Shown here in pieces: positions 4,133-52,085 of a DNA stretch of 55,264 bases; the first letter of the stretch is position 1; every line of letters starts with the position of its first letter. The DNA lies in IMG/VR virus record IMGVR_UViG_3300042546_000342, positions 1 through 55,264 of that record, one strand, 5' to 3'. The stretch comes from a virus (Duplodnaviria; Caudoviricetes). The notes beneath the pieces are model-generated. The model had not been told where the DNA came from and did not search any database. It saw nothing but the letters and a program-made list of their open reading frames with translations. The translations under genes were made by a program, and so were the position numbers.

Positions 4133-4169
4133 TAAACAATAATTCATAACCCCCTAAAACCAAATAAAA

Positions 4170-19849: not shown

Positions 19850-19853
19850 AATT

Positions 19854-20111: not shown

Positions 20112-20133
20112 CTAAATATAATTCTATATTTTT

Positions 20134-24536: not shown

Positions 24537-26477
24537 ATGCAGATAGTACAGCCAAGTGGAAGTATGTTACCTAACCAAGCAAGTGCGGGGGTAGGGGCGG
24601 TTATATTTGACAAGCCGAAGTATGATGCGCAAGAGATTGGGTTAAAGGTTCAAGCAGACCTAGAGGATTGGGGTAAGCAAAAAGCATTAGCCGACCAAGC
24701 TAAACTAAAAACAGCTAAAGACCTTGTTGCCGATTTGTCTTATGAGCCTAAAGACTTTTTGCCCGAAGGTGCGGCTCAAGTAAAAGCCAAAGCAGACGAA
24801 CTAAAGAAAAAGGCGGCAGAATATGAAATGGCTGTTTATAATGCGGGAGCAGATAGTGAAACAGCTAACCTAAAAAAGAAAGAAGCGGAGATAGCTAAAA
24901 GCGATTTGCAGATATTGGTAAATAACTTAGGGCAAGCATCAAAAATGCTTACAGAATACAAGCCCGATGCGACTACCGACTTAGATGCTCAAAATAAATT
25001 AACTGTTGAATTAAGACAAAGTGCGGGAGAAAATGCTTTAAGTGGTAGATTTTTTAAGGCAATGCAACAATATGGCAAACCTATAAAGCCAAAAGGTATG
25101 ATTGAAGTTACGGATGACTTTGTTAAAAACATACCACTTAAAAAGACAGAAGAAGTAGTAGGGAAGGATGGTAAGATTATAGAAGAAGGTACTTCATTTA
25201 AGTTAAAACCAATCAAATATGACGACAAAGGGGTGATAATTGATGATGGTGATTTCGACTTGGTAACGGGCGCACCCGCTAGTCTTGCATCTACACCCGA
25301 ATATCAAAATGCAATTAAACCTTTTGTTGCTAGGATGTTAGACGCTAGTAAAAGATTGGAAAAAGGCGAGCAGTTGGCAGCTAGTGAAATGACTGACGCT
25401 TCTTTGTATAAATACTATGTAGATGAAGCGGCAAAAGAGAGTAAAAGATTAGGCAGACCGATATCCCCCGAAACAATAATCGCTAGAGGTGAATTAGAAA
25501 GAAGAAATCAAGTAGAAAAAACAGCTTCCTATAAAGAAGAAACTGCCACCACAAAAGAGATGGCTAAAGTCGGTGCAGAACAAAGTGTAAAGAAGAAAGC
25601 TGCAACAGGATTGATTAATTGGTTTATAGAAGTGGATAGAGGAAGCCCCGAAATATACACCAATATGACGATTAGCGATGTTGCGCCTAAGTACGATAGA
25701 GAAGTTTACGCTACTAAAGTATTAAGTCCAATTTCGGTAGGGGAAAAGTTTGAAACAAAAGAAGGGGCGAATGGTGCTATATATAAGATTGCTACACCCG
25801 ACTATGTTAGGTACTTTATGCAAGACAAAGAAACGGGAACTAAGTTCTATGCTAGTCAAAGCAGTATAGACGACTTCAATGACGGCAAAATATCTTCTCC
25901 GTTCAAGCAATACAAGAACATTGCGGAAATAGCAGCACAAGCCACGTTTGTTAATGGTGCTGACCAATCTATTGACAATATGAAAAACTATTGGGCAGAA
26001 GTTGGTAAGGAAAAGAGTTACTCAAAAGAGGACGGAAATGGCATTATCTACAAAGAAGGTAGAGAGATACACCCTTTCACCAAAACAGAACAACAAAAAT
26101 ACGGTGCAAACCTACGGCAGACAATGATTAAAGCGGGTACAACTTTACCTAAATACGAGAAAGGTAAAGTACCTGCTGATTTTTCGGGGCAATATTTGGA
26201 AGTGGAATACAAAGAAGGGGAAAATAAAAAACTTGAGATAATAAAGTCAACCCCTAGAGTGGCGAAACCTACTCCGCAACCGACTGTTGCTGATACCACT
26301 ACACAAACAACAGCAACTCCACCGCAGACCGCCCCGAAAGAGGAAGAACCTAAGAAAGAAGGAAAAACGGTTTCATTGCAAACGATAAAAAGTAAAGTAG
26401 GTACTAAAGGATTTGAAGGATACACCGAGAAAGAATTGGTTGACTATTATACATCACAAGGATATAAAATACAATAA
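24537..26477 (+). CDS. Putative internal virion (ejection) protein 2
   Basis: 646 aa, Cys-free, K/E-rich, P/T-rich linker near the C-terminus; coupled to the next gene (TAATG). Confidence 0.6.
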   Translation: MQIVQPSGSMLPNQASAGVGAVIFDKPKYDAQEIGLKVQADLEDWGKQKALADQAKLKTAKDLVADLSYEPKDFLPEGAAQVKAKADELKKKAAEYEMAVYNAGADSETANLKKKEAEIAKSDLQILVNNLGQASKMLTEYKPDATTDLDAQNKLTVELRQSAGENALSGRFFKAMQQYGKPIKPKGMIEVTDDFVKNIPLKKTEEVVGKDGKIIEEGTSFKLKPIKYDDKGVIIDDGDFDLVTGAPASLASTPEYQNAIKPFVARMLDASKRLEKGEQLAASEMTDASLYKYYVDEAAKESKRLGRPISPETIIARGELERRNQVEKTASYKEETATTKEMAKVGAEQSVKKKAATGLINWFIEVDRGSPEIYTNMTISDVAPKYDREVYATKVLSPISVGEKFETKEGANGAIYKIATPDYVRYFMQDKETGTKFYASQSSIDDFNDGKISSPFKQYKNIAEIAAQATFVNGADQSIDNMKNYWAEVGKEKSYSKEDGNGIIYKEGREIHPFTKTEQQKYGANLRQTMIKAGTTLPKYEKGKVPADFSGQYLEVEYKEGENKKLEIIKSTPRVAKPTPQPTVADTTTQTTATPPQTAPKEEEPKKEGKTVSLQTIKSKVGTKGFEGYTEKELVDYYTSQGYKIQ

Positions 26478-29400
26478 TGGAAGAAAAATTATTGCCACCA
26501 CCGCCAAAGAAAGTAGTTTCGCAAAACGGAGAAAGTGATTTATTGCCACCGCCTCCAAAAAAAAAATTAAACGAACCTACAAGTGGAAGCGTAGAAGTTT
26601 CAAAGACCGTTTCTACGCCTCAATCAGGGCTTTCGCAAGGGAGTGGAACAAAGGATAGCGCACCTACTACATATCAATGGAGTGGTGGCGATGTGAAGAT
26701 GCAACAAAAAGTTGTAACTCCATCGGCTTCCGATAGCCAATCTGCTGTTAATGTTGTTACAAAAGAAATGACTGCGGAAGGAAGATTAGCGGAAGAAAAA
26801 GAAGGTTACGAATTATCGAATAAAAAATCCTTAGCTGAACAAGAGGCAAGTAAATCATTTTCAATAGCAACAGAAAATTATACATACGACCAAGTAAAAA
26901 ATTTAGTTCAGTTGCAATCTTTATTAAATAAAACTATTGAAGATAATAAAGACCCTAAATTAGCAAAACAAACTCAAGACGTTGAAGTAATTAAAAAACA
27001 AATTGAAAATTTAAGAAATCAACAAGTAACTCCAAAATATACATTAAACGCAGAAGGACAAACAGTATCATATATTAAACCTAAATATAAAAATGTTGGT
27101 GAAATGTATGATGAAACTATAATGTTTCAAAATAAGCATCAAAAATTAATTGGGGAAATAGAAAATTACGAAACTAAATTAAACCCAATTATTGAAAAAG
27201 CTAGAAAAAATGCTCAATATACACCAAATAAAAAAGACGAATACGGGAATACTTATTATGATTTAAACCCTATGGAGGCTTTTTTAAATGGAGCGGAAAA
27301 TTCACTAGAAACAACTGCAATAGGGTTAGCTAATATGTTTGGCTTTGACGATGAAGCTAAGAGTGCTGCTCAAATGAAATGGTACAAAGACAATGTAATT
27401 AGTCCAAAAAAAGCAGATGGTTTAGTATCACAAGGTTTTGAAATGCTTGGTGGAGTTGCTCCATTGGTAGCAGGTGGTAGTTTGGCTCAAGGTTCTGTGT
27501 TAGGTTCTGTTATAATAAACTCTCTTTTGTTTGGCGCACAAGATTATGGTGGAACTTGGTATAATTCATACGCATCAAAGAAGGCAGAAGGGATGTCAGA
27601 TGAAGAAGCTAGCAAAGAAGCCAATAGCAATGCTAGATTTGCAGGTGTTAAAGGTATGATTTTGGGAGGTACTATGCCATTGCAAAGTATGGCGGGTAAT
27701 AAGGTAGGTGTTTCACTATTTGTAACAAAAGCTGAACAAAATTCTTTTAGGCAATTTATGTATGGTCAAATAGGTATGCTACCTGCGTTTGGTACATCAA
27801 CTGCTTTGCAGAATTGGTACGAGGGGAAACCTGTTACTGATAATGTCGGAAGAGCCATGATTGATGCGTTCATTATAGGTGGTATGACCCACGCTATTGC
27901 AAATTTGCCAAAGTTACCTGCGGCAACTGCGAGATTATTTGAACACACGATTGCTAAAAATTATAATAAAGTATCTACCGTCATAGATGCTGCTGTTCAA
28001 GATGGAACTATAAACCCTACTGTGGGCGAAAACATAGTAGCTAAGGCTAAAGCGTATGACAAGATAAAGGGAGCGGGGTTAAACGAAGATGTTGAAGTAC
28101 AAGTTACTGAATTACAAGTACAGATTGACAAATTAGAAGCATCAAAAGAAGGTGCTTCACCTGCTGTTATTGCAGAAATTGATAGACAAATAAACGAATT
28201 ATCTACTAAACTAAAAGTTGAAGCAGGGTTTCCTTTAACGCCCGATGAGCGCAAAGAACTTAATCTACTTCAAGCAGCTAGAGATAGCAATAAAGAATAC
28301 GATAAAGAAAAATTAGCGGAACTAGAGCAACGACAAAAGAACAATCAAGACGGGAAAACCAAATTAGTTACAGACCAACCTATCCGTGTAAAGTATAAAG
28401 ACGGTAGAACGGGTCTTGTGTTTGTGAACGCAGAGGGTGATGTAGAGTTTGTTCCCGATGGAAATTCTGCGGGGTTGGTTATAGACAAACAAGCAGGTGC
28501 AAGTTTTAGAAGTTTGGCTAATTTAGGTTTTGAGCAAGTTGTTGGCGAAACGGTTGCTGAACCTAATTCTCAATTACTAAGTGGCGATATAGCTGTCGGG
28601 ACTAATGTTTTATATAAAGGCGGTAAATATCAAATTGCTAGTAGTAAGAACGCCCCCGATGGGGTTAAGCTAGATGCTGACGGCAAGGTGAGAGTAGTGT
28701 ATTTAAAGGGAGAAGATGGCAAGGTAATAGCTGTTGGTGCAGATAGTGCAGACGGGAAAAGAATTATTGACGATGCTAATAGAGTGATAGGTAAAGGCGA
28801 AGCCACGCCTACTGAAACAGCACCCGTTCAAAAAGAAACAAAAGTAGTCGAGGCGCAGAAGAAAACAGATGAAACGGTTGAAGTGGAGTTAGAGCCTACG
28901 GTGACAGAAGAAAAGGTCGAAGCAGTACAAACCCCTACTGAAACAGTAACGGAAGCAGAAGTTGTTACCCCTATTGCGCCCGATGGCGAAGTGGCGGTTG
29001 AAACAGCACCCGAATTTATTGAAAGTACAGAAAAGGTTATCCAAGAAGCACCTAAAGTAGAACAAGTAGCCGAAGTCAAGCCAATTAAAATACTAGAGGC
29101 ATCAAGAAAGTATGTGCCACTAGATACGTTTGATGCAGTAATGAAATATTTTGCCGTTGGTGGTAGAATAAACACCGAAGATTTAAAGTCGGAAACGGGC
29201 TTTGGTTCGCAAAAAGGTGGTGGAAGAATAACAAGTAAGGGGAACGTGATTTCTGAAACTAGAGGCAAGGAAGATTTTAAAAAACGTAGTTGGGTTCATT
29301 CTAGCAAAGCACCAAAGATGGACGATTTGGTTATGAATATTGCAGAAGAAATGACTGCAATGAACCCCGATATGGAGTACGACCAACAACAAATAAGAAG

Positions 29401-32400
29401 CGAAATTATTGAGGTATTAAGTAGATACGATAGTAAACTTGATATACAAGCAGAGTTGGCTAAAAAATATGACGATGCTTCGTTCATTGAGAATTATGGA
29501 ATGACACGCTCTCAATATGAAGCCTATGTTGAAGAAGGTAAATACAAGGCAGAGCAAGAAAAAAAGTGGTACGAAGAAAACGGCTTGAATTGGGAAGAAC
29601 AATCTGAAATGGACGAGTATGCTACTGAACTAGAAGAAAGTGGCATTACTGAAGAAGATATTATCAGAGAAGCAAAAGAGTACGATGAATACCTAAATAC
29701 ATTATCTAACGAAGAAAAACAAAAAGAATTAGACTATGCAAACGCAAAAAACACAACTAACCAACGAGGAGAAAGCGAAACGAATGTTGAAAATCAAGAA
29801 GATGCAAGAGGTAAAAACGAAGAAAGGCTTGCAGAAGCCAAGCGTAACTTCTTAGATGCCGAAAGTGAATACAACAAAGTCACTAAAGCACTAGAAACCG
29901 ACTTAGCCAACAAACAAGGTTCTATGTTTGACGGCAAAGAACAAAAGTTGTTTGACAATAGCGCAGACCTAGCCAAAAAAGCAAAAGACGCTAAACGCAA
30001 ACTTGATGAAGCTAAAGAAGCCTACGACAAGGCACAAGGATTAGTAGATGATAAGTTGCAAGGGCAAATGGAGTTAGGCAAAAATCAAGAAAAGTCTACG
30101 TTTAAAACCCAAGAAGAAACCAAAGTTGAGCAAGCCACCGAAAAGGTACAGAAATTTAAGGACGTATTAGACCAACGCACCGACAAAAAGACGGACAAGG
30201 CACTCAAAGCATTTGGCGAACAAGAGGCAAAAGCAAAAGAGTTAATTGACAACTACGACACTAACTTTAAAAAGCTAGAAGAAAAAGGAGTAGAAGTCAA
30301 GGGTACTAAAGCAGAAATCTTAGCTGATATGCTAGATGGCAAGTACGATGAAGCGTTAAAGAGTGATACTTCTATTCCATCATCTAAGTCAGGTGATAGT
30401 AAATCAGAAGTTCAGAAAGCTAATGAAGAAGTATGGAAAGCCGTACAAGACGTATTAAATGCGGGGGATTTTACTAAGTTAGGCTTTGCAGCTAAAAACG
30501 TAGGAGAAAAGTCGGCAGAAGCGTTAGATAGATTGCATAAAGCGTTAGTCAAAGCGGCAAAGGCTTATTTAAAAACAGGTGGAAATTCGGTAAAACAATT
30601 TGCTAAAAATATTGGCTTGAGTACAAAGAACGCCAAGCAAGCGTGGGACGAGGCAATGGGTCTTACAACTTTCAACAAAGACAACCTTGACTACGACCTA
30701 GCCGATATAGCAAAGGTAGCTATTCGCAGAGGAATAAAGGTGCGTGAGAAGTTACTAGAATACAAAGCAAAGCAAAAGGATGTAGCCAAAGCCATTAAAG
30801 ACTTTATGGATGACGCTGAAATCAAGGGTGCGCTTAGCCCAAGCCAAGTAAAAGCATTGGTAAAAAGAGCCGCTAGTATCACAACGGACGCTCAATTTGA
30901 TAAGTTTATTGATTATGCTGATAAGATAATTAAAGACGCAAATTTAGCGCAAGATTTAGAAGATTTGCGTAGCAACCAAAAGGGTGCAGGAAAGAAACGC
31001 CACAATGAAAAAACGGCTGACGTAAGAAAGTTTTTGGACGCAGAAATATTTGATGAGGACGGAAACTTATTGCTAGATGAAGCCACATTTAGTGAATATT
31101 CAGATGCGGTAGCGGCACTTAATCAAAAAATACCTGACCACTCTTTGATGGAAGCTACTGATGCTTCGGGTAAAACGCTATCGGAAAGAGTTGCCGACCA
31201 ATCACAATCTGCTTCTAATCCGTATATGAATATTAATACGGTACAAGACTTAATGAAGGCTTGGACTGCCCTTGACAATAATATAGTTGATATTGATAGC
31301 TACAAATCATTTACTAGAAATATCAGCAAGATTAAGGCAAGGCTAAAGGATTTAGTCCAATCAGGTACGATTAAACAAGATGATTACGACACCGCTATTA
31401 GTCAAATATACAAGCACGAAAACGGCAAAAGAGTATATGAAGCAAAATATGGCGACCAAATTGGGCAATTAAAATCCGCACAAATAGCCGATGCTCAAGC
31501 AAAAGCAAGATTGGTTGATGATAGTGGGTTCAATAAAATGCAGAAAGAATTGTGGCAAGAGTTCAAGCGCAATATGTCGGTTAATTTTGAGAAGTTTAAG
31601 AAATTGGAAGTTTCTGACTTGGATAAATTGAACACCGTCCTTGACCGAATGGGTAATGGATTTATGCCCGAATATGAGTTCAGACAAGTAATGAACAAGA
31701 TTGAAACACAAGGACAAGGAGTTAAGATAGCTAAACAAGTAGCTAAGATTTCAGATAAGTTTAAAAACAACTTAGATAAACTTCGTGATTTATTTGAAAC
31801 AAATGACCCTGCGAGATACGAAGCAGAACTAGGAATAGCGGGAGATAATTCATTGTGGAATGGCGTGTTAAGTAGAACACAACGTGCGCTAAAAAAATAT
31901 ACTGAAACCACGCATGATATGTATGAGAAGTGGTATGATAGTTTACCTAGCTTCTATAAAATTACGGGTAAAAAACCTGTATTGATAGACAAGATAGATG
32001 CTAAAGATGGTAAGGTAGGCAAAACTGTTGTATCTCAAAGGGAGTATGATATGGTCAAGGTGGGTGTGGTTCGCCACATGATTAACCACGCTGCTGAAAT
32101 GATAGCTAAAGGTAAAGACCCAATAGATGTATTTGGTGAGCAACTAGCTGACATTAAGGAACGTCAAAATTACGCCACAGAAGGTGAGTTAAGTATCTTA
32201 ACTGATGTGTATAACAAATTGAAGTCTAATCCTGATTTATTAGATATTAATGGCGAATTAGATTACAATAAAGTTTGGAAAAGCGTGGAAGCTAATGACG
32301 GTAAAGTGTTGGACGTAAATCAAGCTAAAATAGAAAGTTCATTTGACGGTCTTGACTTAGAAACAGGTGATATGATTACATCATCTAATGCCATAAGAGG

Positions 32401-34063
32401 TGTGAACGCCACTAAAAATCCAAAACACATCAGAAGATATTATGTAGGAACACGAGTTGGCGAAGGTCAGATTAACGAAAGCGAACAGATTGGGGTGAGA
32501 GCAGGTTCATCTTACGCTCGTGCAGAAAAAGATATGCCTAACGGTGCTATGTTATTAAATGCGGAGAAAATCATTCAGCGTCAAATTAAAGAAGCCGCAA
32601 AAGATTACCACATTAATCAAGAATTGGATAAATTGAATGATGTGTTTGAAGAAGCTAAGTTAGCAGCTAACAGAGAAGATATTAATGTGCTAAACGAGTT
32701 TCAACAAGACCAACGTAGGATAATGCAGTATCATTTATCATCGGGCGACATACCTCCTGTGTTTAATAAAATACAAGGTGGGCTTTATGTGAAAATGCTT
32801 ACCACTCCTTACCGTTTGGCAGCAGAAGCGGTATCAAATACCGCTCAAATGATGGTAAGAGGTAGGTCTTTTAGAGGGTTATTAACTGCGTTACCTAGTG
32901 AAAAAGTTAATCCAATGTATCGTGAAATGACCGATATAATGAAAGCTACCGAAAGTACATCGTTAGACCACGCTGAATTTAGGTCAATGAAAAACATTGA
33001 AACTAAAGACGGTCAAATACAGCGAGAGGGGTTATTAAAACGTGGCGTGGATATTATCAACGGTGTGACAAACGCAATGGCGGTGGGCGGTATATGGATG
33101 CCAAACTTTAATAGAAAATTTGCTGAACTTACAGGTGAGAATTATAATAATTCTATGCTGAAAAACCCTAAGTATGTAGATGCTATGCGTGAGGCTTCAT
33201 CTTATGCAGATAGAGAAACAGAAACGGTTATTGGTTCTACGCTAAAGGGAGGTTCAAGAAGAGAAATAGTGCTTACTCCTTTTGGTGGTAAACTAAAAGC
33301 AGATACCGCTTTAGGTAGTTTAGCTAAGTTTTTGAGTAATTATCCTTATCGAGATACAAAAGAATTAGTTAGAGGTATTAATCAAATGGTTACGGGAGTA
33401 AATGAGGGCAGAATAGACGGTGCAGCAAGGTCTATGGGTGTTGTTACTAACATGATGCTTTACACAGGAATGTATGCTATTACTAAGTCTTTGTGGAAGC
33501 AAACTTTTGGCGATGACGATGAAAAAAAGGAAGCAAAAGAAACAATAGACCGATTATCTACAAAAGAAGGATTTGTAGACTTCACTAAACAAGAGGCGTT
33601 ATCAAATGCAGTAAATCTAGCAGGAACTAAATATTCTCAAGCGGGTAAAATGATGACAAGATTGAGTGTGATAGCTTTATATAATTCAAATTTGCTAGAC
33701 GAAACGCAAAAGAAAGACCTTGCCAATTTTGCCGAAGCGCAATTATATATGTACTTTAATAAAAAAAGTTTCCGTAAAAGTGATGCGCAATCCGAATTTT
33801 ACAATGTCATACCTCATTTAAAAGAAGCGTCTGATATATTCTATCGAGAGGTGAAAGGCGAGGAGGGTGTAACAGCATTGCTTAAAGAAGCTAGAGAGAA
33901 AGGCGTAGAGGGATTGACTAAAGACAAACAAGCACAATTATCGCTATTGAAGAACTTTATACATACCACAAATATTTTATTGTATTCGCAAGGAACGCAA
34001 TTGCCGTTCTCTAAAGATTTCGTAAAAAGTTTGGAGGTTCAAATAAAAGAATTAAACAAATAA
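26477..34063 (+). CDS. Large putative internal virion (ejection) protein 3
   Basis: 2528 aa, Cys-free, Gly/Ala-rich hydrophobic region near the N-terminus, long coiled coils, acidic tract. No RNA polymerase motif recognised. Confidence 0.65.
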   Translation: MEEKLLPPPPKKVVSQNGESDLLPPPPKKKLNEPTSGSVEVSKTVSTPQSGLSQGSGTKDSAPTTYQWSGGDVKMQQKVVTPSASDSQSAVNVVTKEMTAEGRLAEEKEGYELSNKKSLAEQEASKSFSIATENYTYDQVKNLVQLQSLLNKTIEDNKDPKLAKQTQDVEVIKKQIENLRNQQVTPKYTLNAEGQTVSYIKPKYKNVGEMYDETIMFQNKHQKLIGEIENYETKLNPIIEKARKNAQYTPNKKDEYGNTYYDLNPMEAFLNGAENSLETTAIGLANMFGFDDEAKSAAQMKWYKDNVISPKKADGLVSQGFEMLGGVAPLVAGGSLAQGSVLGSVIINSLLFGAQDYGGTWYNSYASKKAEGMSDEEASKEANSNARFAGVKGMILGGTMPLQSMAGNKVGVSLFVTKAEQNSFRQFMYGQIGMLPAFGTSTALQNWYEGKPVTDNVGRAMIDAFIIGGMTHAIANLPKLPAATARLFEHTIAKNYNKVSTVIDAAVQDGTINPTVGENIVAKAKAYDKIKGAGLNEDVEVQVTELQVQIDKLEASKEGASPAVIAEIDRQINELSTKLKVEAGFPLTPDERKELNLLQAARDSNKEYDKEKLAELEQRQKNNQDGKTKLVTDQPIRVKYKDGRTGLVFVNAEGDVEFVPDGNSAGLVIDKQAGASFRSLANLGFEQVVGETVAEPNSQLLSGDIAVGTNVLYKGGKYQIASSKNAPDGVKLDADGKVRVVYLKGEDGKVIAVGADSADGKRIIDDANRVIGKGEATPTETAPVQKETKVVEAQKKTDETVEVELEPTVTEEKVEAVQTPTETVTEAEVVTPIAPDGEVAVETAPEFIESTEKVIQEAPKVEQVAEVKPIKILEASRKYVPLDTFDAVMKYFAVGGRINTEDLKSETGFGSQKGGGRITSKGNVISETRGKEDFKKRSWVHSSKAPKMDDLVMNIAEEMTAMNPDMEYDQQQIRSEIIEVLSRYDSKLDIQAELAKKYDDASFIENYGMTRSQYEAYVEEGKYKAEQEKKWYEENGLNWEEQSEMDEYATELEESGITEEDIIREAKEYDEYLNTLSNEEKQKELDYANAKNTTNQRGESETNVENQEDARGKNEERLAEAKRNFLDAESEYNKVTKALETDLANKQGSMFDGKEQKLFDNSADLAKKAKDAKRKLDEAKEAYDKAQGLVDDKLQGQMELGKNQEKSTFKTQEETKVEQATEKVQKFKDVLDQRTDKKTDKALKAFGEQEAKAKELIDNYDTNFKKLEEKGVEVKGTKAEILADMLDGKYDEALKSDTSIPSSKSGDSKSEVQKANEEVWKAVQDVLNAGDFTKLGFAAKNVGEKSAEALDRLHKALVKAAKAYLKTGGNSVKQFAKNIGLSTKNAKQAWDEAMGLTTFNKDNLDYDLADIAKVAIRRGIKVREKLLEYKAKQKDVAKAIKDFMDDAEIKGALSPSQVKALVKRAASITTDAQFDKFIDYADKIIKDANLAQDLEDLRSNQKGAGKKRHNEKTADVRKFLDAEIFDEDGNLLLDEATFSEYSDAVAALNQKIPDHSLMEATDASGKTLSERVADQSQSASNPYMNINTVQDLMKAWTALDNNIVDIDSYKSFTRNISKIKARLKDLVQSGTIKQDDYDTAISQIYKHENGKRVYEAKYGDQIGQLKSAQIADAQAKARLVDDSGFNKMQKELWQEFKRNMSVNFEKFKKLEVSDLDKLNTVLDRMGNGFMPEYEFRQVMNKIETQGQGVKIAKQVAKISDKFKNNLDKLRDLFETNDPARYEAELGIAGDNSLWNGVLSRTQRALKKYTETTHDMYEKWYDSLPSFYKITGKKPVLIDKIDAKDGKVGKTVVSQREYDMVKVGVVRHMINHAAEMIAKGKDPIDVFGEQLADIKERQNYATEGELSILTDVYNKLKSNPDLLDINGELDYNKVWKSVEANDGKVLDVNQAKIESSFDGLDLETGDMITSSNAIRGVNATKNPKHIRRYYVGTRVGEGQINESEQIGVRAGSSYARAEKDMPNGAMLLNAEKIIQRQIKEAAKDYHINQELDKLNDVFEEAKLAANREDINVLNEFQQDQRRIMQYHLSSGDIPPVFNKIQGGLYVKMLTTPYRLAAEAVSNTAQMMVRGRSFRGLLTALPSEKVNPMYREMTDIMKATESTSLDHAEFRSMKNIETKDGQIQREGLLKRGVDIINGVTNAMAVGGIWMPNFNRKFAELTGENYNNSMLKNPKYVDAMREASSYADRETETVIGSTLKGGSRREIVLTPFGGKLKADTALGSLAKFLSNYPYRDTKELVRGINQMVTGVNEGRIDGAARSMGVVTNMMLYTGMYAITKSLWKQTFGDDDEKKEAKETIDRLSTKEGFVDFTKQEALSNAVNLAGTKYSQAGKMMTRLSVIALYNSNLLDETQKKDLANFAEAQLYMYFNKKSFRKSDAQSEFYNVIPHLKEASDIFYREVKGEEGVTALLKEAREKGVEGLTKDKQAQLSLLKNFIHTTNILLYSQGTQLPFSKDFVKSLEVQIKELNK

Positions 34064-43184: not shown

Positions 43185-43831
43185 CAATAGCCATCCCGAC
43201 CTACTACAAGGACAGCCGAACACTAGATAAGCTAGACTTACTATTCAAGTCCATATCCGCACAAAAGAATGTGGATTTTTCGGTTTTGGTCAGCGATAAC
43301 TCCGAACTCGACCATATTGAGAACCTTTGCGCCCGATATGGGTTCAGCCATCAGTATTGCGATAGAAAAGGAACTTCTGCCAACACTAACGCTTTACTCG
43401 ACCAACTAGACGGTAAGATAAAGATAATGTACCAAGATGACCTCTTTATGACCGACACGGCACTAAAGGAGTTCAGCGATGCCCTAGATAATTACAAGTG
43501 GGTAGTATCTACGTCAACTTTAATTGACGAGCGAGGACTGCCTATGTGGGGAGTTAATAATCCTCATTTCCACCACCGCCTAACCCACTCTAATACAATC
43601 GGTATGCCATCTGTGGTCGGGCTGTGGGGAACGGACGTAAGAATGGACACTAGACTGATTACTTTATTGGACACCGACTTTTACAACAAGCTAGTAAAAA
43701 AATATGGGCTTCCGTACATAATACAGAAACCCATTATTGGTCAAAGAGTTTGGAGTGGAAGCGTATCAGCTAGCTTGAGCCAAAGCGACAAGATTAATGA
43801 CCTCGCTATTCTCGCATCCGATTTTTCTTAG
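43181..43831 (+). CDS. Glycosyltransferase family 2-like
   Basis: IAIPTY, LVSDNS, YQDD, IGMPSVV, LLDTDFY motifs. Confidence 0.8.
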   Translation: MTIAIPTYYKDSRTLDKLDLLFKSISAQKNVDFSVLVSDNSELDHIENLCARYGFSHQYCDRKGTSANTNALLDQLDGKIKIMYQDDLFMTDTALKEFSDALDNYKWVVSTSTLIDERGLPMWGVNNPHFHHRLTHSNTIGMPSVVGLWGTDVRMDTRLITLLDTDFYNKLVKKYGLPYIIQKPIIGQRVWSGSVSASLSQSDKINDLAILASDFS

Positions 43832-44269
43832 CAGAGTGTTTAAATTTTTCAACACCGCTTGGTTTTTCTCGCCCGTGATGGCGTACAGTCTTACCAATTC
43901 AGAGTAAGCGTCCGATACAAAGTCAGAATAATTCTTTTGGCGCAACAAAGGTTCTGCGTAGTCAGAAACCATGCTCACCGCTTGAGCGACTTGTAGTCTT
44001 ACCTCCTCGTCACTATCGCATAAGTCTTGGAGTTCTTGGAGTGAACTTAGGATGGTAGAGTGGTGACGACCACCGATTTCTTTTCCTATGTCTTTTAGAG
44101 TGAACGGGTACATCCCGTCCAAGTAATGCTTGCGTAGCATATAGCAGAATAAGTGTCGTGCTTGAGCGATAGGTCTTAGCCTACTCTTTGATTTGATTTG
44201 TTCTTGAGTGATACCTGTTAAGGTGTACACAATCATAAATGCTTCGTTGATTTTTTCTGTTCTGTTCAT
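43766..44269 (-). CDS. Protein with DnaA C-terminal (domain IV) HTH
   Basis: KSR...IAQARHLFCY..RK...LKDIGKEIGGRHHSTIL; no AAA+ domain. Confidence 0.85.
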   Translation of the reverse strand: MNRTEKINEAFMIVYTLTGITQEQIKSKSRLRPIAQARHLFCYMLRKHYLDGMYPFTLKDIGKEIGGRHHSTILSSLQELQDLCDSDEEVRLQVAQAVSMVSDYAEPLLRQKNYSDFVSDAYSELVRLYAITGEKNQAVLKNLNTLLRKIGCENSEVINLVALAQAS

Positions 44270-45666
44270 ATGTATCTAGTTTTAGTTGATGGTATTGAAA
44301 TATAATTCGGTGTTCCACTTGCTATCCATTCTTCGTCCTCGTATCGTGTACCCACTTTCGGTGCGTCCAATCTTCTGATATAATTTGTCCTAGACCACCA
44401 AAAGTTCCCTTCGTAGAAGCCTATCCAATTCACACCGCAAGTATCGTAACCATTTCTGATATGTGCAATGCAGTCACGCCAATTTAACAAAACTTGTGTA
44501 TTCATTTCATCCCTCCATTCCGCCACGTTGTCCGCCACTTTACTAGCTCCCTTAGTGTGGAAGTATAGAATGATACTCGGCACGGTTTGAGATAGCTCGT
44601 GCATAAGGGTGATGGTAGGTCTTTCGTAGCCTTCCACTCCCCAATAGTGGAACTTAAACTTATCTCCGTCTAGTATGTCAATCAAGTCCTTAGTATCCTC
44701 TTGCGCCCCAATCACCCCTACATGGATTTCTTGTAGTTCGTAGTACAGACCCGACCTTTTCATAATCTCGTATTGTTCGGTCACGATGGACTTCCAAGCG
44801 TTTTTCATATAAACATGATAGTAGCCAATTATCCGTTTGTTGTCGGCTAGCTTCGGGGTGTAGGTGAACTTCTCTTTGAAGCCTGCCATATCAAAATAGT
44901 AGGACACGAAGTCGTTGTATATTTTGATTATGTCTGTGCTTTTCACTTCTGTGCCAATGATGGACAGACCTATGTACTTATCAATGATGTACTCTTTACT
45001 GCGCCAATCGTTCAGTATGTGTAGGTAGATAGGTCGCCACGACTTTTTGTGAGGAAGAACACCCGTGATAGCACACGCTATGTTGAAAGCTAGTTCGTCA
45101 GGGAATTGTTCTCGCCAAGTTTCTGCTTTAAAGCCCGATTTCAGCACCTTTCTAGCTTCGCAGAATACTGCCTTAGCTTTATCGTTATTAAGCCAAAGAA
45201 TAACGGACGAGTTTACTTGCGGTATTTTTGTGTCAAGTGGTAGGTTGAAGAACTTAGCTATGTCCTCATACTTCGCCCACGCCCGATACTTGGGGGACGG
45301 TTCGCCCGATAAGGGGGAGATACCAATATTGAACATCGTAAAATCACTACTCTGCAAGAACATCTCATCAACTGAATGTGACGGATTGATAATCGTATCA
45401 GCGTCTAGGAATAAAGTTTCATGGTAAGGGGTCATCAAGTCTAGCGACACCTTGAGTTCCATTACTTGCTTGTTGGGCGTTACATTGTCCTCGATTAAGA
45501 TGTGGTGGTCGAACACGGCTAGATAGTCTTCTAGTCCCTTAAATGCCGACTTAGAATAGATAATTCCTATCGGTGTTCGGCTGTTCTGTTTTATGGACAC
45601 CGCTAGTGCGACAGCCATCCGCCCGTATAGGGGTTCTCCTACGGCTATTGTTAGTATTCCTTTCAT
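44266..45666 (-). CDS. Two-domain glycosyltransferase-like protein
   Basis: N-terminal GT8-like domain (FLDADT, VNSSVI, PDE.AFN). C-terminal domain with YE.PT, YFHTKG and GNFWW motifs. Confidence 0.7.
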   Translation of the reverse strand: MKGILTIAVGEPLYGRMAVALAVSIKQNSRTPIGIIYSKSAFKGLEDYLAVFDHHILIEDNVTPNKQVMELKVSLDLMTPYHETLFLDADTIINPSHSVDEMFLQSSDFTMFNIGISPLSGEPSPKYRAWAKYEDIAKFFNLPLDTKIPQVNSSVILWLNNDKAKAVFCEARKVLKSGFKAETWREQFPDELAFNIACAITGVLPHKKSWRPIYLHILNDWRSKEYIIDKYIGLSIIGTEVKSTDIIKIYNDFVSYYFDMAGFKEKFTYTPKLADNKRIIGYYHVYMKNAWKSIVTEQYEIMKRSGLYYELQEIHVGVIGAQEDTKDLIDILDGDKFKFHYWGVEGYERPTITLMHELSQTVPSIILYFHTKGASKVADNVAEWRDEMNTQVLLNWRDCIAHIRNGYDTCGVNWIGFYEGNFWWSRTNYIRRLDAPKVGTRYEDEEWIASGTPNYISIPSTKTRYI

Positions 45667-45681
45667 GGTTATGTTCGATTT

Positions 45682-45903
45682 TTAAAATGGACAATTTTGT
45701 TTTGGTATTAGTTCTATTTCGCTTTTTAGTTTTTCTAGGCTGACAAAATTGCGGTTAATGTAATATCCTGCTTTGCCTCCTTTTATGGTTTTCTTTATTT
45801 CTTTACTCGTTTTTAAGTTAATCAATTTTTTACATTCAGTCCAAACATAATGATGGAATACCTTGTGCCTCCACTTTGATTTGTAACTACATAAAACATT
45901 CAT
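45682..45903 (-). CDS. Small basic hypothetical protein
   Basis: Track ORF 45682-45927; ATG 45903 preferred over the TTG start. Confidence 0.5.
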   Translation of the reverse strand: MNVLCSYKSKWRHKVFHHYVWTECKKLINLKTSKEIKKTIKGGKAGYYINRNFVSLEKLKSEIELIPKQNCPF

Positions 45904-45952
45904 AATCAAATTTATTTTAATGGGCAAAGTTGCACATATTTACGAGTTATGG

Positions 45953-46162
45953 CTAATTGCCTTGCGACACGAATACTTTTAGCGTTCTGCCATTATCTTG
46001 CACCCGTAATTCCGTTCTGTTTGTTGGTTTCCAATTAACATAGCTTCTGCCTTTTTCGTCAATCACTTCAACTCTGTTAATCATTGCAGTCGGCAACATA
46101 GCCATAACATCGGCTATGCTCAATGCATTACCTTCTGCATTAAATAATCCTGTGTTTTCCAT
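45953..46162 (-). CDS. Cassette-associated hypothetical protein reading through a repeat arm
   Basis: 69 aa; LSIADVMA is encoded by the arm at 46099-46123 and the stop lies in the 45946-45955 arm. Confidence 0.65.
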   Translation of the reverse strand: MENTGLFNAEGNALSIADVMAMLPTAMINRVEVIDEKGRSYVNWKPTNRTELRVQDNGRTLKVFVSQGN

Positions 46163-46294
46163 ATCAAATTTTTTTTTTAAAATTAGCTTAGTATTTCAAA
46201 TACGGCACTAAGCATAGCCGTTTACCGTTATAAAACATTGAAACGATTTTATAACACCAAATAGGCGTAAGGCTTAGTTTCGTTCTTTGTATTA

Positions 46295-46462
46295 TCATTT
46301 CGTTTCAAAAATTATTTTTCTATCGCTTCGTTCTTCAAATTTTCGTATGCAACTTTCTAAATCGTGGTCATCTGTTATTCCACTTAAATAATCTCCAGCT
46401 TCACCACTTATTATATCAAATAGTAGTTGCAACTCTTCTTTTGTAAATTTTGTTTCTTCCAT
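46295..46462 (-). CDS. 55-aa acidic protein inside the loop of an attC-like site (absent from ORF track)
   Basis: MEETKFTKEELQLLFDIISGE...IIFETK*, between arms 46257-46269 and 46516-46528. Confidence 0.55.
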   Translation of the reverse strand: MEETKFTKEELQLLFDIISGEAGDYLSGITDDHDLESCIRKFEERSDRKIIFETK

Positions 46463-46546
46463 AAAATAATTTTTGTTTAGTTCTTTGTATAAAGTTTATA
46501 GATTAATAATCGCCCTACGCCTATTTGGATAACGTTATAACCAATG

Positions 46547-46822
46547 CTAACAAGCAGTAGTCATATAATCAAAATTTTCGGACTTGCTGAACAAATCAAT
46601 AACCGCTTCTGTTGAAATTGGTATAATGTGATATGTTTCACTATTCCGTTTTTTAATGTATAATTTAGGCTTGTCAAGTTCTCCACTCGTTACGCAAACC
46701 ATTTGGTTTTTATTTACTTTTTTCTCTAAAGCAAATCCGTGATAGCCTGTTTGTTTAAACTCGACATTACAACTCATATCGGTTCTTTCAAATCCTAAAT
46801 CAATGTATTTTTGGTATTCCAT
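46547..46822 (-). CDS. Cassette hypothetical protein
   Basis: 91 aa filling the interval between 15-bp inverted repeats; TAG stop overlaps the arm. Confidence 0.7.
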   Translation of the reverse strand: MEYQKYIDLGFERTDMSCNVEFKQTGYHGFALEKKVNKNQMVCVTSGELDKPKLYIKKRNSETYHIIPISTEAVIDLFSKSENFDYMTTAC

Positions 46823-46935
46823 ATTGTTATTTTTTTAAGTTAATTAATCAAAAGCACTGGTTATAACAGCACATAAGCAAAAGCCCAAATTCCACCGCAC
46901 AAAGCCGACACACAACTGCGTATAGCTGCATCACG

Positions 46936-47109
46936 TTACCTAATTTCCATTTTCAAAATATAATTACCGCCATATCGGATGCTACGGAGTTCGGTTTTTA
47001 AATTCTTTTCTTGAGTTTTTTGTAGTTCGGTTTGAACATAATTAACCCATGCAAGATACGACAAATTTTCGGGGCGTTCAATAGTTTTTGAGATTTTTAC
47101 TTCTGTCAT
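46936..47109 (-). CDS. 57-aa hypothetical protein (absent from ORF track)
   Basis: MTEVKISKTIERPENL...KMEIR*; its TAA is the TAA of the TAAC core at 46935-46938. Confidence 0.55.
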   Translation of the reverse strand: MTEVKISKTIERPENLSYLAWVNYVQTELQKTQEKNLKTELRSIRYGGNYILKMEIR

Positions 47110-47112
47110 GGT

Positions 47113-47220
47113 TTAGTTTTTTGAATGAGTTAAATTGAATACAATTCTGTCTAGTATAACGTACACGGGTACTCCCTCTTGTGCCGCTTGCTTCTCTAGG
47201 TCTTGGATGGTTAGTGCCAT
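47113..47220 (-). CDS. 35-aa microprotein
   Basis: MALTIQDLEKQAAQEGVPVYVILDRIVFNLTHSKN*, fills the gap between neighbours. Confidence 0.5.
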   Translation of the reverse strand: MALTIQDLEKQAAQEGVPVYVILDRIVFNLTHSKN

Positions 47221-47221
47221 A

Positions 47222-47488
47222 TTAGTTGGTTGCTTTTTGGATTACTGCTTCAAATAATTCGACCAAAGCGGGGTTTGTGTCGTAAACGTGGGCGTGGTCA
47301 ACTGCTTCTCTCAATACAGAAAGCATATCGGGCGCATTTGCAATTAATTTTGCGTTTGCTTCGGCTTCATCTTCAAAAAGTGTATTTATTGTGCAAACTG
47401 TACCCATCATTGTATTTCTTGCCCTTACTTTTAATTCGTTGTTATGGTTACTTACAAACCATTCGCCTTGTGTGTGTTTAGTTTCCAT
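47222..47488 (-). CDS. Small phage protein, KHT.G.W...EANAKLIA.APD family
   Basis: Same motif pattern as 51804-52085. Confidence 0.7.
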   Translation of the reverse strand: METKHTQGEWFVSNHNNELKVRARNTMMGTVCTINTLFEDEAEANAKLIANAPDMLSVLREAVDHAHVYDTNPALVELFEAVIQKATN

Positions 47489-47627
47489 TGTTTTCAGTTT
47501 TAGCTTGTTGAGATAATTTTAATACTTGCAAGATGTACCCGTGTAGCGTTCTGCCGTCTTTCTTTGCGGAGGATTTGAGTTTCATTTTTAGTTCCTCGTC
47601 TAGTTTAATGCTCGTTGGCTTTTTCAT
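47478..47627 (-). CDS. Ribbon-helix-helix (Arc/CopG-like) protein, 49 aa (absent from ORF track)
   Basis: PTSIKLDEELKMKLKSSAKKDGRTLHGYILQVL fits strand-helix-G-R-T-helix. Confidence 0.7.
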   Translation of the reverse strand: MKKPTSIKLDEELKMKLKSSAKKDGRTLHGYILQVLKLSQQAKTENNGN

Positions 47628-50063: not shown

Positions 50064-50630
50064 TTAGTGATTAAGGAAAAAATAAATAGTTCCGTCCTCG
50101 TCTGTTGCTGTGTTGTAATCGTAACGGAGGGAGCAATTCCAAGAAGCGTCCCAATCTATACAAATCCAATTCGGGAGATTTGCGGGAATTTCTCCGCACT
50201 CTTCTGCCATACGTTGCGCAAAATCTGCTTCGCTGTCTGCTGTGCCGTGAAAAGCGTCTTGAGCGTCCGAAAGTTCAATGTCTGAAATATTGTAGCCCGT
50301 TGCATCTGCGTACATTTCAACAATTTTTTGGTCGTGTTCGTCCATGTTTATAAATTCAAAAAGTTTTTCTATTGTTTGTTTGTCGTAACTTTCGCAATAA
50401 AAACACTTCGGGAAGTCCTCAAAATCGGTAAACATTATCTCCTCTCTAGGGCTGTCTAGTGGACTTTTTTTGTCTGCTTCTGCGAAATGGTTTTCGATGT
50501 ACTCAAAAAATTCATCTGCGTTTGAAAATTGGCAAAGGTCAACCCAATGCCCAAACTCAAATTGAGTTCCATTGTTATAGCTTGCATAATCAGTTAAAAA
50601 TAGTTTTGGTTCTGTTGTTGTTGTGTTCAT
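50064..50630 (-). CDS. ardA: Antirestriction protein ArdA-like (DNA mimic)
   Basis: YASYNNG...GHWVDL, E..FTDFEDFP, G.ADSEADFA, IP..L...IDW; very acidic; first gene after TATATTTG (minus, 50686-50693). Confidence 0.85.
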   Translation of the reverse strand: MNTTTTEPKLFLTDYASYNNGTQFEFGHWVDLCQFSNADEFFEYIENHFAEADKKSPLDSPREEIMFTDFEDFPKCFYCESYDKQTIEKLFEFINMDEHDQKIVEMYADATGYNISDIELSDAQDAFHGTADSEADFAQRMAEECGEIPANLPNWICIDWDASWNCSLRYDYNTATDEDGTIYFFLNH

Positions 50631-51469: not shown

Positions 51470-51676
51470 TCAATTGCCTTGTTTTTGGTCATTTTCGGTT
51501 AAAAATAGGGTTATTTGTAGTATTTCGAGGAGTTTTTCCATATCCTTTAAAGATGTGAAGACGGTTTCTCCTTGCTCGAAGCGGTTATATTTCGCCCGTG
51601 TGAAGCCTAGTTTTTGGCTTATTTGTTCTTGCGTGTATCCTAGTTTTTTTCTTTGTTGCTTTATTTTTGTACGCAC
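51470..51676 (-). CDS. XRE/Cro-like HTH regulator
   Basis: IKQQRKKLGYTQEQISQKLGFTRAKYNRFEQG; GTG start lies inside one repeat copy. Confidence 0.85.
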   Translation of the reverse strand: MRTKIKQQRKKLGYTQEQISQKLGFTRAKYNRFEQGETVFTSLKDMEKLLEILQITLFLTENDQKQGN

Positions 51677-51744
51677 TGCTATTACATTTTGAGCAAATAT
51701 AGCGAATTAATCTAAATTTTGTACGCACTGCTATTACATTTTGA
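51665..51744. repeat. Perfect 28-bp direct repeat flanking the HTH promoter box (probable operators)
   Basis: TTTTGTACGCACTGCTATTACATTTTGA at 51665-51692 and 51717-51744; the 24-bp gap contains TATATTTG on minus (51694-51701). Confidence 0.85.
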
Positions 51745-51755
51745 TTGACGGGCAT

Positions 51756-51784
51756 AAAAAAGCCCCACTTTTTAGGGTGAGGCT
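51756..51784 (-). terminator. Intrinsic terminator
   Basis: Minus strand AGCCTCAC-CCTAAAAA-GTGGGGCT followed by TTTTT. Confidence 0.8.
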
Positions 51785-51803: not shown

Positions 51804-52085
51804 TTACTTTGTGGCTTTGTCAATTGCTTGTTGGATTATCTCTCTAACCGTTAATGCGTCTTTGCGCTCTTGGTTGATTAATTTTCTTGCTGCTTTCAAC
51901 GCTTCGAGCAAGTCGGGCGCACTAGATATGAGTTTTGCATTGGCTTCGTTCTCCTCGCTTGGTTCGCCCCGTTTGGGGTCAATTAAAGCTATTATTTTAC
52001 GGCTGTCTTGTGTGTCGGTTACTTTGTGAGCGTATATTGTTAGCCCACTGTATTTCCATTGTCCGTCTGTGTGTTTTGTTTTCAT
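51804..52085 (-). CDS. Small phage protein, paralog of 47222-47488
   Basis: MKTKHTDGQW...EANAKLISSAPDLLEAL. Confidence 0.7.
   Translation of the reverse strand: MKTKHTDGQWKYSGLTIYAHKVTDTQDSRKIIALIDPKRGEPSEENEANAKLISSAPDLLEALKAARKLINQERKDALTVREIIQQAIDKATK

Follow-up and report, generated by a model that had tools for sequence, protein, structure and literature searches.

Introduction

The closest known counterparts of the repeats examined here are the PeSLs of T4-type phages and the attC sites of integrons and CALIN. The repeats in question were met in a 55,264-bp stretch of viral DNA (IMG/VR record IMGVR_UViG_3300042546_000342, Caudoviricetes), here called the window and always meant at its full length, in which a long inverted repeat encloses a complete open reading frame (ORF) of 55 amino acids (aa), ORF55, on the minus strand. 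PeSLs (Arbiol et al. 2010, PMC2839356) are stem-loop repeats of ~100 bp, found in hyperplastic regions between genes that are small orphans. They begin at the upstream stop codon, combine a sigma-70 promoter with a terminator stem, undergo homologous recombination in their AT-rich part, and are tied to gene insertion, deletion and replacement, with mini-circles being proposed. The box consensus of attC sites is quoted as RYYYAAC...GTTRRRY in a survey (Qi et al. 2023, PMC9892861) that reports 17 integrase-less attC clusters in phage genomes, virulent phages among them. The cluster of Polaribacter phage P12002L described there contains two methyltransferase cassettes, and the integron integrase IntI1 recombined one of its two tested sites.

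The window is the full virus record, a linear sequence with a CheckV completeness of ~46%. Its products include a capsid-like protein, a holin, an M15 endolysin, a primase-polymerase and ArdA, and from ~43.8 kb onward there is a long run of small ORFs on the minus strand. GenBank phages gave no match by blastn to window 45600-47600, and none by tblastn to the capsid-like protein. A first-pass annotation, made from the sequence letters, had noticed 13-bp perfect arms ~246 bp apart around ORF55 and had described the structure as an attC-like site with a gene nested in its loop. In the present study the locus was compared with other contigs (designated L and a number), including those from five whole phage records (two of which are G001 and G004), and a covariance model of the hairpin family, R1, was used to find further sites.

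ORF55 and its site form a mobile module

Both the repeat and the ORF coordinates bear out the arms and the enclosed gene of the first-pass annotation. Read in the gene sense, 5' to 3', the features of the site are:

46534-46537 (-): TAAC box, where the ORF55 module has its 5' junction and the upstream 91-aa module its last four bases; homology to contig L003 begins at 46537
46512-46528 (-): 5' arm of the long stem (gene sense), pairing with 46257-46273 at 17 of 19 positions
46472-46490 (-): internal direct repeat, copy 1, 16-19 nt, leader-type, 5' of the ATG
46463-46475 (-): inner inverted repeat, leader half, ending at the base that precedes the ATG; paired in the RNA and DNA folds
46295-46462 (-): ORF55, 55 aa, ATG start, for a predicted small acidic two-helix protein (program ORF call)
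46306-46318 (-): inner inverted repeat, partner, within the 3' end of ORF55
46274-46292 (-): internal direct repeat, copy 2, directly 3' of the ORF55 stop codon
46257-46273 (-): 3' arm of the long stem, pairing with 46512-46528
46227-46255 (-): GTTA foot (46252-46255) with a 29-nt tail, foldable as a 9-bp mini-hairpin that ends at TAAC 46227-46230

One metagenome scan yielded three contigs that encode the ORF55 protein, and each of them matches the whole window in a single piece (blastn):

L003: window 46537-46226, 100% identity, 312 nt
L004: window 46545-46229, 97.8% identity, 319 nt
L005: window 46521-46249, 86.5% identity, 274 nt

Outside these pieces the flanks of the three contigs are unrelated to the window, and also to one another, except for one gene common to L003 and L005 that is differently placed. 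The ORFs adjoining the module differ in each contig, L004 having an HNH/NUMOD4 endonuclease two genes upstream and L005 the C-terminus of a cytosine methyltransferase. In all four contexts (window, L003, L004 and L005) the common block begins at the TAAC box; in L003 and L004 the stop codon of the upstream gene is the TAA of the module's TAAC, and in the window and L003 the block ends immediately before the next TAAC. A 360-nt contig from another lake metagenome is identical over exactly 46226-46537, with other sequence on both sides. At the level of sequence comparison, it is established that window 46226-46537 (minus strand) constitutes a self-contained mobile single-gene module with TAAC at both ends.

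Arms, foot and fold of the site

The arms (46257-46273 and 46512-46528) are 17 nt long, 94% complementary with one G·T, and 238 nt apart. Their perfect core is the 13-mer CCAAATAGGCGTA, at 46257-46269 on the plus strand and 46516-46528 on the minus strand (246 nt apart), and this 13-mer is present exactly twice in the whole 55,264-bp record. Outside the arms, the TAAC box is able to pair with GTTA 46252-46255, so that the site spans 286 nt, its loop holding the 55-aa gene. Within the loop, a second perfect 13-nt pair (46306-46318 / 46463-46475) connects the leader just 5' of the ATG with the 3' end of ORF55, and a ~19-nt direct repeat (89%) stands on either side of leader plus ORF55, a pair that recurs in non-coding members of the repeat family described below. 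The loop of the mini-hairpin in the 29-nt tail is TCGTTTTAATG with one change, TCGTTTTAATG being the loop motif of short members of the same family. When the gene-sense strand is folded, both as RNA and as DNA, the long stem and the inner stem close, with minimum energies of -63.2 kcal/mol (z -3.2) for RNA and -36.1 kcal/mol (z -4.3) for DNA, and in neither case was any of 100 shuffles as good.

Perfect inverted-repeat pairs of at least 13 nt and 20-300 nt apart number three in the window, against a mean of 0.4 (sd 0.72) in 100 dinucleotide shuffles of it, and two of the three are nested around ORF55. Two of the 100 shuffles did reach three pairs, so in an AT-rich window of 55 kb a chance inverted repeat, or an ordinary terminator, around an unremarkable ORF is not in itself impossible. 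The arms are nevertheless not a product of chance, because their covariation between diverged copies and the large repeat family outweigh the shuffle count. Between the window and L005, five arm positions have changed on both sides with pairing kept (four from one Watson-Crick pair to another, one to G·T), one double change loses its pair, and one single change yields G·T; in L004 an A-to-G change also yields G·T. Among the 19 stem positions, 17 are paired in the window, 17 in L003, 16 in L004 and 15 in L005. These compensatory changes establish, as far as aligned copies can, that the ORF55 arms are under selection for pairing. Together with the identical boundaries in four contexts, the family membership and the lack of a U-tract, they refute a chance repeat or terminator, to which practically no weight is given.

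ORF55 is a selected gene

Compared with its copy in L005 (89% identical), ORF55 shows 7.5 synonymous changes over 31 sites and 7.5 non-synonymous changes over 134 sites, that is, dS 0.29 and dN 0.058, with a ratio of ~0.2 (Fisher p 0.002-0.009 depending on rounding). The dN/dS comparison that the first-pass annotation had put forward as a check thus came out as that of a selected gene. Close relatives in 5.8 billion proteins amount to only two clusters, at 98% and 89% identity, and an exhaustive HMMER search added P0003 (117 aa, E 1.3e-7) and P0004 (81 aa, E 2.7e-6) as remote relatives, with a conserved motif in common. Neither Pfam nor PHROG has a family for ORF55, and no relatives turned up among viral contigs, either with the single protein or with a 4-sequence profile. 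AlphaFold2, given the 4-sequence alignment, predicts a two-helix hairpin with a mean pLDDT of 87. Contigs from RNA libraries cover only 46534-46930, the 91-aa module, with nothing over ORF55, and their ends and strand are unreadable from the contigs. On the pattern of substitutions, ORF55 is evidently a real gene under selection.

A family of TAAC-hairpin-GTTA repeats

Besides the module, L003 carries a 126-nt non-coding element with arms of the L005 type, a TAAC...GTTA foot and the internal direct repeat of the ORF55 site. Its right-arm pattern (19 specified bases) was the query of a family scan and matches at least 120 viral contigs and at least 120 bacterial genome contigs, the latter, among the matches listed, being nearly all Bacteroidota of several classes. 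Again among the matches listed, a left arm lies 20-90 nt upstream in 112 of 125 right-arm occurrences; for the other 13 it is 246 nt away once (L005), 549 nt away twice, and missing by this test in ten cases, some of them contig-end losses. The consensus consists of TAACG, a 4-nt spacer (placing the stem ~5 nt from TAAC), a 14-bp base stem, a distal stem of 5-6 bp, a loop of 20-85 nt, one unpaired base and GTTATA, with a typical length of 70-135 nt. In the base stem CGGGCTTGGCGAAG pairs with CTTTTGCCAAACCCG, including two G·T and one C·A. An alignment of 40 sequences has 92% of its stem cells paired, compared with 32-51% in slid controls, and the TAAC/GTTA foot is paired in 94% of cells. Six distal pairs show double changes, in 98 cells versus 37.7 in shuffles, and none of 500 shuffles reaches 98. 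The bases 5' of TAAC are variable (TA, GC, CA, GA, GG, CC and others) and the 3' flank is constant. Rfam gave no match in the window at the gathering threshold, and in five loci only chance-level microRNA/snoRNA matches (E at least 0.06). Among literature listings and abstracts, no account of this hairpin family was found.

R1 gave 223 matches at E <=0.01 across 41 loci (494 kb), of which ~50 are weaker reverse-strand shadows; the real sites form same-strand arrays with a spacing of 350-1000 bp. The five whole virus records have 33, 16, 1, 3 and 6 sites, and in the record with 33 (169 kb) all are on one strand, between 77 and 115 kb. Twenty bacterial loci tested with R1 again showed co-oriented arrays, for example eight sites in 7.7 kb at a Flavobacterium silvisoli locus. 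Among Flavobacterium phages, 13 GenBank records from the genus Muminvirus also have a match to a family element, at 91.5%. In the 8.1 kb of the cultured Flavobacterium phage filifjonk9-1 that were scanned with R1 there are 11 same-strand sites at E <1e-7 and one more at E 0.008, lying between or overlapping annotated coding sequences (CDS). At five of them the CDS ends on the TAA of TAAC, and three methyltransferase genes of this phage begin within element loops. A term search of the Muminvirus description (PMC7077304) finds none of the words hairpin, intergenic, palindrom- and stem-loop.

For 280 short sites having 16 or more pairs, the position relative to genes was counted. At 71 of the 280 the upstream long ORF terminates on the TAA of TAAC; at 38 its stop codon lies 12 nt upstream, and at most others no more than 27 nt upstream. 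An ORF of at least 40 aa begins within the loop at 88 sites and no more than 75 nt past the site at 144. Family elements are co-oriented with genes, each standing at the 5' edge of one small gene within an array of accessory genes. Taken together, the alignments establish that the ORF55 arms represent a long-loop member of a family of the form TAAC-stem-loop-stem-GTTA, carried, to judge by its distribution, by Bacteroidota (Flavobacterium-type) phages and prophages. From the repeat family alone, the host of the window phage would be a Flavobacterium-type bacterium.

Several further observations concern the coding content of the elements. The 3' arm forms the N-terminus (...PFCQTRVI...) of DNA methyltransferases that start in the loop in L012, L027, L057, L074, L075, L099 and L129 (4077-4868), and in most other copies the same frame stops a few codons past the arm, leaving micro-ORFs of 17-23 codons. 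Two 'hypothetical proteins' of filifjonk9-1, gp019 and gp006 (L129 688-855 and 6457-6561; 55 and 34 aa), lie nearly all within elements and may be annotation artefacts. Units of ~17 nt (A/T-rich...GAA..AC..AAAC) occur two to four times in long loops (e.g., L008 1003-1134; window 46274-46292 and 46472-46490). They recur 10-20 nt 5' of many start codons and could be a translation or promoter signal.

Sites that enclose whole genes

A family signature was defined as TAACG followed by G/T, a 5' spacer of 3-6 nt, a 3' spacer of 0-1 nt, and GTTA followed by T/G. Searches with it returned 297 short sites against 0 in a reversed-sequence control, and 12 long sites (at least 16 pairs) against 0. Three of the 12 are copies of the ORF55 module (the L005 copy has 15 pairs). 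Five hold other complete ORFs, of 54 aa (L026), 90 aa (L057), 76 aa (L121), 197 aa (L102) and 145 aa (L088), and in the remaining four an ORF begins inside and reads through the 3' arm. The statement of the first-pass annotation that the sites themselves carry cargo is thus supported, both for the mobile ORF55 unit and for these other complete genes, and sites with a complete gene in the loop are, by the signature counts, rare but above chance. Its picture of two alternating gene slots, in the cassette body and in the site loop, was overstated given 12 long sites against 297 short ones, and given that one complete-gene module looks like a homing-type insertion.

The module in question is that of the 145-aa ORF, a recombination endonuclease VII (PF02945, 80.7 bits), which interrupts the 3' arm of an element that is complete in other respects, is accompanied by an 8-nt duplication, and has identical copies in L048 and L088:

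L048 ~3790-4330 (-): endonuclease VII insertion in the 3' arm of a hairpin element
L088 8830-9419: endonuclease VII insertion in the 3' arm of a hairpin element

In L134/L135, upstream of the 91-aa module, a related endonuclease VII-type gene stands in place of an element's left half. From this arrangement, the endonuclease VII insertion is most simply classed as homing-type, a separate route by which a gene comes to lie inside a site, and accounts for one of six distinct complete-gene modules. The endonuclease VII genes as a group look like free-standing homing endonucleases that target the repeats.

Neighbouring modules in the window

With filters off, R1 found one good site in the window, element Y (40.9 bits, E 4e-8); the ORF55 site, whose loop is too long for the model, is not detected. 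The features adjoining the ORF55 module are, again in the gene sense:

46860-46938 (-): element W, chimeric; its TAAC box overlaps the stop codon of a 57-aa ORF, its arms no longer pair, and it is not found by R1
46547-46822 (-): 91-aa ORF forming the body of the upstream module; 16 viral contigs share it at 94-99% identity, with neighbours that differ
46101-46232 (-): element Y, an ordinary family member that begins at the TAAC ending the ORF55 module; its loop contains the ATG of a 69-aa ORF and its 3' arm is coding
45946-46162 (-): 69-aa ORF (45953-46162) with the module-ending TAAC (45946-45949), a TAAC-bounded module
45668-45927 (-): ORF 45682-45927, with no hairpin, ending at TAAC 45668-45671

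The 91-aa block extends from ~46855/46909 to 46532-46534 and is covered by one RNA-library contig. Its match ends at 46532-46534 in 13 of the 16 contigs and runs on to 46528 in L132, 46518 in L134 and 46522 in L144, since in these three the sequence that follows is similar to the start of the ORF55 site. The junction alignments of all 16 contigs place the switch of follower after TAAC, and there are at least 12 different followers, some of which are not family elements. The 5' boundary of the block varies within element W, which combines a 5' arm of one lineage with the loop and 3' arm of another. The 69-aa block (46232-45946) is 87-94% identical in L154-L157, with TAAC at its start and end and different neighbours on both sides. 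ORF 45682-45927 had been suggested to be another loop passenger whose left arm was lost. This is not supported, for neither arm is present, and the ORF sits between TAAC 45946-45949 and TAAC 45668-45671; a 38%-identical homologue in L036 is likewise bounded by TAAC. Across the window, YTAACGK occurs 22 times (33 expected) and TTATAAC 10 times (16.7 expected), so neither is enriched, but six of the ten TTATAAC matches cluster in 46227-46867. The window thus has such modules in one small patch, not in a large array.

Boundaries of exchanged blocks and the strand that folds

Breakpoints were collected by all-against-all megablast of the loci (at least 90% identity over at least 200 nt), giving 253 distinct internal block ends, with the provisos that BLAST ends are not crossover points and that copies related by descent are counted repeatedly. 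Of these, 141 lie more than 200 nt from any detected site. Among the 112 near an element, 57 fall within -5 to +8 of TAAC (24 block 5' ends and 33 block 3' ends), 33 fall inside an element, one is at GTTA, and the rest are scattered. It is the 3' ends that are informative: since homology of the upstream gene stops at TAAC and does not continue through the downstream site, the unit of exchange is the site plus the downstream gene. The ORF55, 91-aa and 69-aa modules all end at TAAC, the site moving with the gene that follows it. The block comparisons establish, within the limits of alignment ends, that exchange units run from TAAC to TAAC.

A pairing count bears on which strand folds. G·T and A·C were treated alike in detection, and in 181 unique arm pairs with at least four differences from the consensus left arm, the gene-sense strand has 418 G·T and 138 A·C. 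A cruder count over all elements gives 628 G·T and 262 A·C, but it is dominated by the consensus, and its excess is not independent because the consensus stem itself has two G·T and one C·A. The excess in divergent pairs favours folding of the gene-sense strand, which could equally be the mRNA or a displaced or lagging-template DNA strand.

Mechanism of exchange

The explanation favoured here, to which about an even chance is given, is a structure-guided, site-specific exchange at TAAC that is like attC recombination but mirrored, and that proceeds without IntI. The hairpin would fold on a gene-sense single strand, and modules would be exchanged by cut-and-join at TAAC, at the foot of the hairpin. 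The site would work as an integron attC does, mirrored relative to the genes and with no integron integrase. ORF55 would travel inside its site because both arms flank it. Candidates for the acting enzyme would be a host enzyme or an Xer-like recombinase, the latter being encoded beside two of five arrays. PF00589 is present in two of the five phage records (G001 and G004), and in both there is an Xer-like gene 1-1.6 kb past the nearest element, adjoining methyltransferase genes. The model on which both proteins have their highest score is of the XerA type (206 and 199.5 bits, against a cut-off of 220). As to their setting, these Xer-like tyrosine recombinase genes (L126 3177-4073 in G001, L127 3787-4620 in G004) stand beyond the last site, by two or three adenine methyltransferase genes. 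A parallel in the literature is that predicted attC clusters of virulent phages, a Polaribacter phage among them, can be recombined by IntI1 (PMC9892861).

Several results weigh against such an exchange. No recombinase was detected among the 34 longer ORFs of the window that were run through Pfam (of 101 ORFs of at least 70 aa), and three of the five phage records have no PF00589 match. On TIGR02249 the two Xer-like proteins reach 155 and 168 bits (cut-off 265), in two stretches with the middle of the model unmatched. Breakpoints at TAAC are partly to be expected at block 5' ends, since the upstream coding sequence differs between contexts, and the hairpin-less module with ORF 45682-45927 is bounded by TAAC too. 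The breakpoints inside elements, with W joined in its loop, imply that ordinary homologous exchange between repeats also occurs. A generic search for long sites (any TAAC...GTTA with at least 17 pairs, a span of 171-1100 nt and arms outside short sites) returned 31 sites and, in a reversed-sequence control, 31 as well, and so proves nothing. Finally, the G·U excess, the sharing of TAA with upstream stop codons and the start codons in loops would fit an mRNA element equally well.

The last point leads to a regulatory cassette of the PeSL type, the main rival explanation, considered possible, if on balance doubtful. The hairpin would then be an mRNA element of the gene's 5' untranslated region (a processing or stability stem, an insulator, or a device for translational coupling), and in the ORF55 module it would pair the two ends of the message. 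Shuffling would be a by-product of homologous or microhomology recombination between repeats, perhaps stimulated by homing endonucleases and filtered by selection for intact units. Much agrees with this: the element is always in the gene sense and moves with its downstream gene, sense-strand G·U exceeds A·C by 3:1, upstream stops overlap TAAC and downstream ORFs start in loops at the frequencies given above, and the two nested stems of the RNA fold enclose ORF55 and bury its leader. Exchange within elements and the chimeric W are what such recombination would leave, and endonuclease VII-type and HNH genes are found in or beside elements. As with PeSLs, the repeat is intergenic, in plastic regions where the flanking genes vary between relatives, and T4-type phages offer a precedent in the account of PMC2839356 already cited. 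However, junctions fall at the same four bases in many contexts, including those with no element or homology to the right of TAAC, and this confinement to TAAC is not explained by homologous exchange. The base stem and foot are also conserved in sequence across Bacteroidota classes, beyond what a bare RNA stem needs. Inspection of the elements by eye revealed no -33/-7 consensus and no U-tract after the stem (no scan for Bacteroidota promoters was made), so neither a promoter nor a terminator consensus was identified, and the RNA-library contigs give no cover over ORF55. Site-specific exchange at TAAC and a role in the mRNA are not mutually exclusive, and the hairpin may also control expression of its gene.

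The sites could instead be true integron components, attC sites of CALIN served in trans by IntI of the host community, with the ORF55 site being an attC with an oversized loop. In canonical cassettes the folding strand is opposite to the gene sense. The term attC-like used by the first-pass annotation holds for the geometry: an AAC/GTT foot, a spacer without pairing, a stem that covaries, a loop that varies, and arrays of one gene per unit in the same orientation. It does not hold for membership of the attC family, as no integron integrase was found and junctions are at the TAAC end. The attC 7-mer boxes fit in part only, the bases before TAAC being variable and GTTATA having a pyrimidine at a purine position. 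Typical members (70-134 nt) agree with attC sites in size and in being non-coding, and the 286-nt ORF55 site, which encloses a gene, does not. The canonical crossover, G|TT with the gene and its downstream site as the unit, lies at the other end of the site, while breakpoints number 57 at TAAC and one at GTTA, and the strand that appears to fold is the gene-sense one. No protein of five array-bearing bacterial genomes exceeded the TIGR02249 cut-off, nor did the two phage recombinases, and by these model scores the integron integrase is absent from the window ORFs tested, the five phage records and the five bacterial genomes. In favour of a true integron origin, P12002L is reported in PMC9892861 to have CALINs with methyltransferase cassettes and a site that IntI1 recombined. 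Between two methyltransferase genes of this phage there is a TAACGG...GTTAGG hairpin whose loop motif is TCGTTTTAATG, as in short family members, its match to the published sites not being established. R1, however, found nothing significant in P12002L (best 15.8 bits). Overall, a true integron component is unlikely.

Another rival is single-strand transposition of the IS200/IS605 or REP/RAYT type, in which a HUH (Y1) enzyme acting in trans would cut 3' of TAAC and the modules would be non-autonomous. Strand specificity, a hairpin by a fixed tetranucleotide, TAAC at both ends and no target duplication are all points in common, the likeness of the modules to IS608 resting on the general properties of that element. 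No HUH gene was seen, although no search was aimed at one, most modules have a hairpin at one end only, and dense arrays of one site per gene are atypical of such elements. The probability of this mechanism is put very low.

In its widest form, the favoured site-specific exchange would mean that Bacteroidota phages have an integrase-independent, integron-like system, in which hundreds of sense-strand hairpins with a TAAC crossover box delimit single-gene cassettes (methyltransferases, orphans and homing endonucleases) that are swapped between unrelated phages by a structure-specific enzyme, and in which a gene may ride inside the site. This generalization is offered tentatively, and is thought more apt to need revision than to stand as worded.

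Other features of the window

Three other products belong to the same block of small genes: the ArdA antirestriction protein (50064-50630, minus strand; PF07275, E 6.6e-15), a product with the helix-turn-helix domain of the DnaA C-terminus (43766-44269, minus strand; PF08299, E 4.7e-15), and a 49-aa ORF (47478-47627, minus strand) that is weakly Arc/ribbon-helix-helix-like. Two very long plus-strand ORFs, of 1620 aa (11263-16125) and 2528 aa (26477-34063), have no Pfam matches at E <=0.001. Another inverted repeat, 19840-19855 / 20118-20133 (16 nt, 94% complementary, 13 nt perfect), surrounds an 85-aa ORF (19854-20111) in the plus-strand structural/lysis region and is without the TAAC signature. 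A perfect 13-nt inverted repeat at 51571-51583 / 51900-51912 has its arms within two separate coding regions. Between these arms, at 51680-51760, there is a terminator-like hairpin with two direct copies of a ~26-nt motif (AAAATGTAATAGCAGTGCGTACAAAA) that is operator-like.

Significance and comparison with known systems

The modules bear on an old question, the mosaics of phage accessory genes and the movement of orphan genes between unrelated phages, for here the unit of exchange can be read directly, from TAAC to TAAC. Because the family, itself large, extends to a cultured Flavobacterium phage-host pair, laboratory tests of its mechanism are possible. Site-specific exchange would make the system a phage-borne counterpart of the integron, with mirrored sites and no IntI. 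A regulatory role would make the repeat a structured element that is widespread in Bacteroidota phage transcripts and has no entry in Rfam. Under both readings, gene callers currently label parts of the repeat as small 'hypothetical proteins'.

MITEs and Correia-type elements are familiar examples of small repeats that have inverted ends and spread both inside a genome and from one genome to another, and mycobacteriophages have the MPME, ~440-bp elements that carry a small ORF. Unlike these, the TAAC modules have no target-site duplication, are strictly co-oriented with genes and occur one per gene in arrays, and their stems covary, which is unexpected for recent copies of a transposon. A MITE or transposon with target-site duplication was ruled out, the bases before TAAC being variable and the TAAC at the module end being common with the neighbouring module.

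In rRNA operons, processing stems enclose a whole gene product, and RNase III sites lie between the early genes of phage T7. The likeness is that complementary flanks form a long stem around a gene, or hairpins between cistrons; the differences are a sequence-conserved foot and TAAC junctions at the level of DNA, and no evidence of cleavage was obtained here.

The features shared with attC sites and CALIN, including those reported in virulent phages (PMC9892861), are numerous. Both are imperfect inverted repeats whose AAC...GTT foot is conserved and whose spacer is unpaired, with a stem conserved in structure and a variable loop. Sites of 70-135 nt stand in co-oriented arrays of one small gene each, with stop codons running into the site, and the cassettes are rich in orphan DNA methyltransferases and are found in many contexts. 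The family is unlike attC in that the unit is a site with its downstream gene (TAAC, a 5' junction in the gene sense) where the integron has a gene with its downstream site. It also has no integron integrase, favours a gene-sense fold, and has spacers of ~5 nt versus 1 nt. Its base stem is strongly conserved in sequence, and some sites enclose a whole gene or the start of one.

PeSLs remain the closest functional analogue. They share with the present family (PMC2839356) the ~100-bp stem-loop repeats at stop codons and the modular shuffling of small genes. What sets the TAAC family apart from them is a long stem (at least 20 bp), a conserved foot and junctions concentrated on four bases, with no promoter consensus found.

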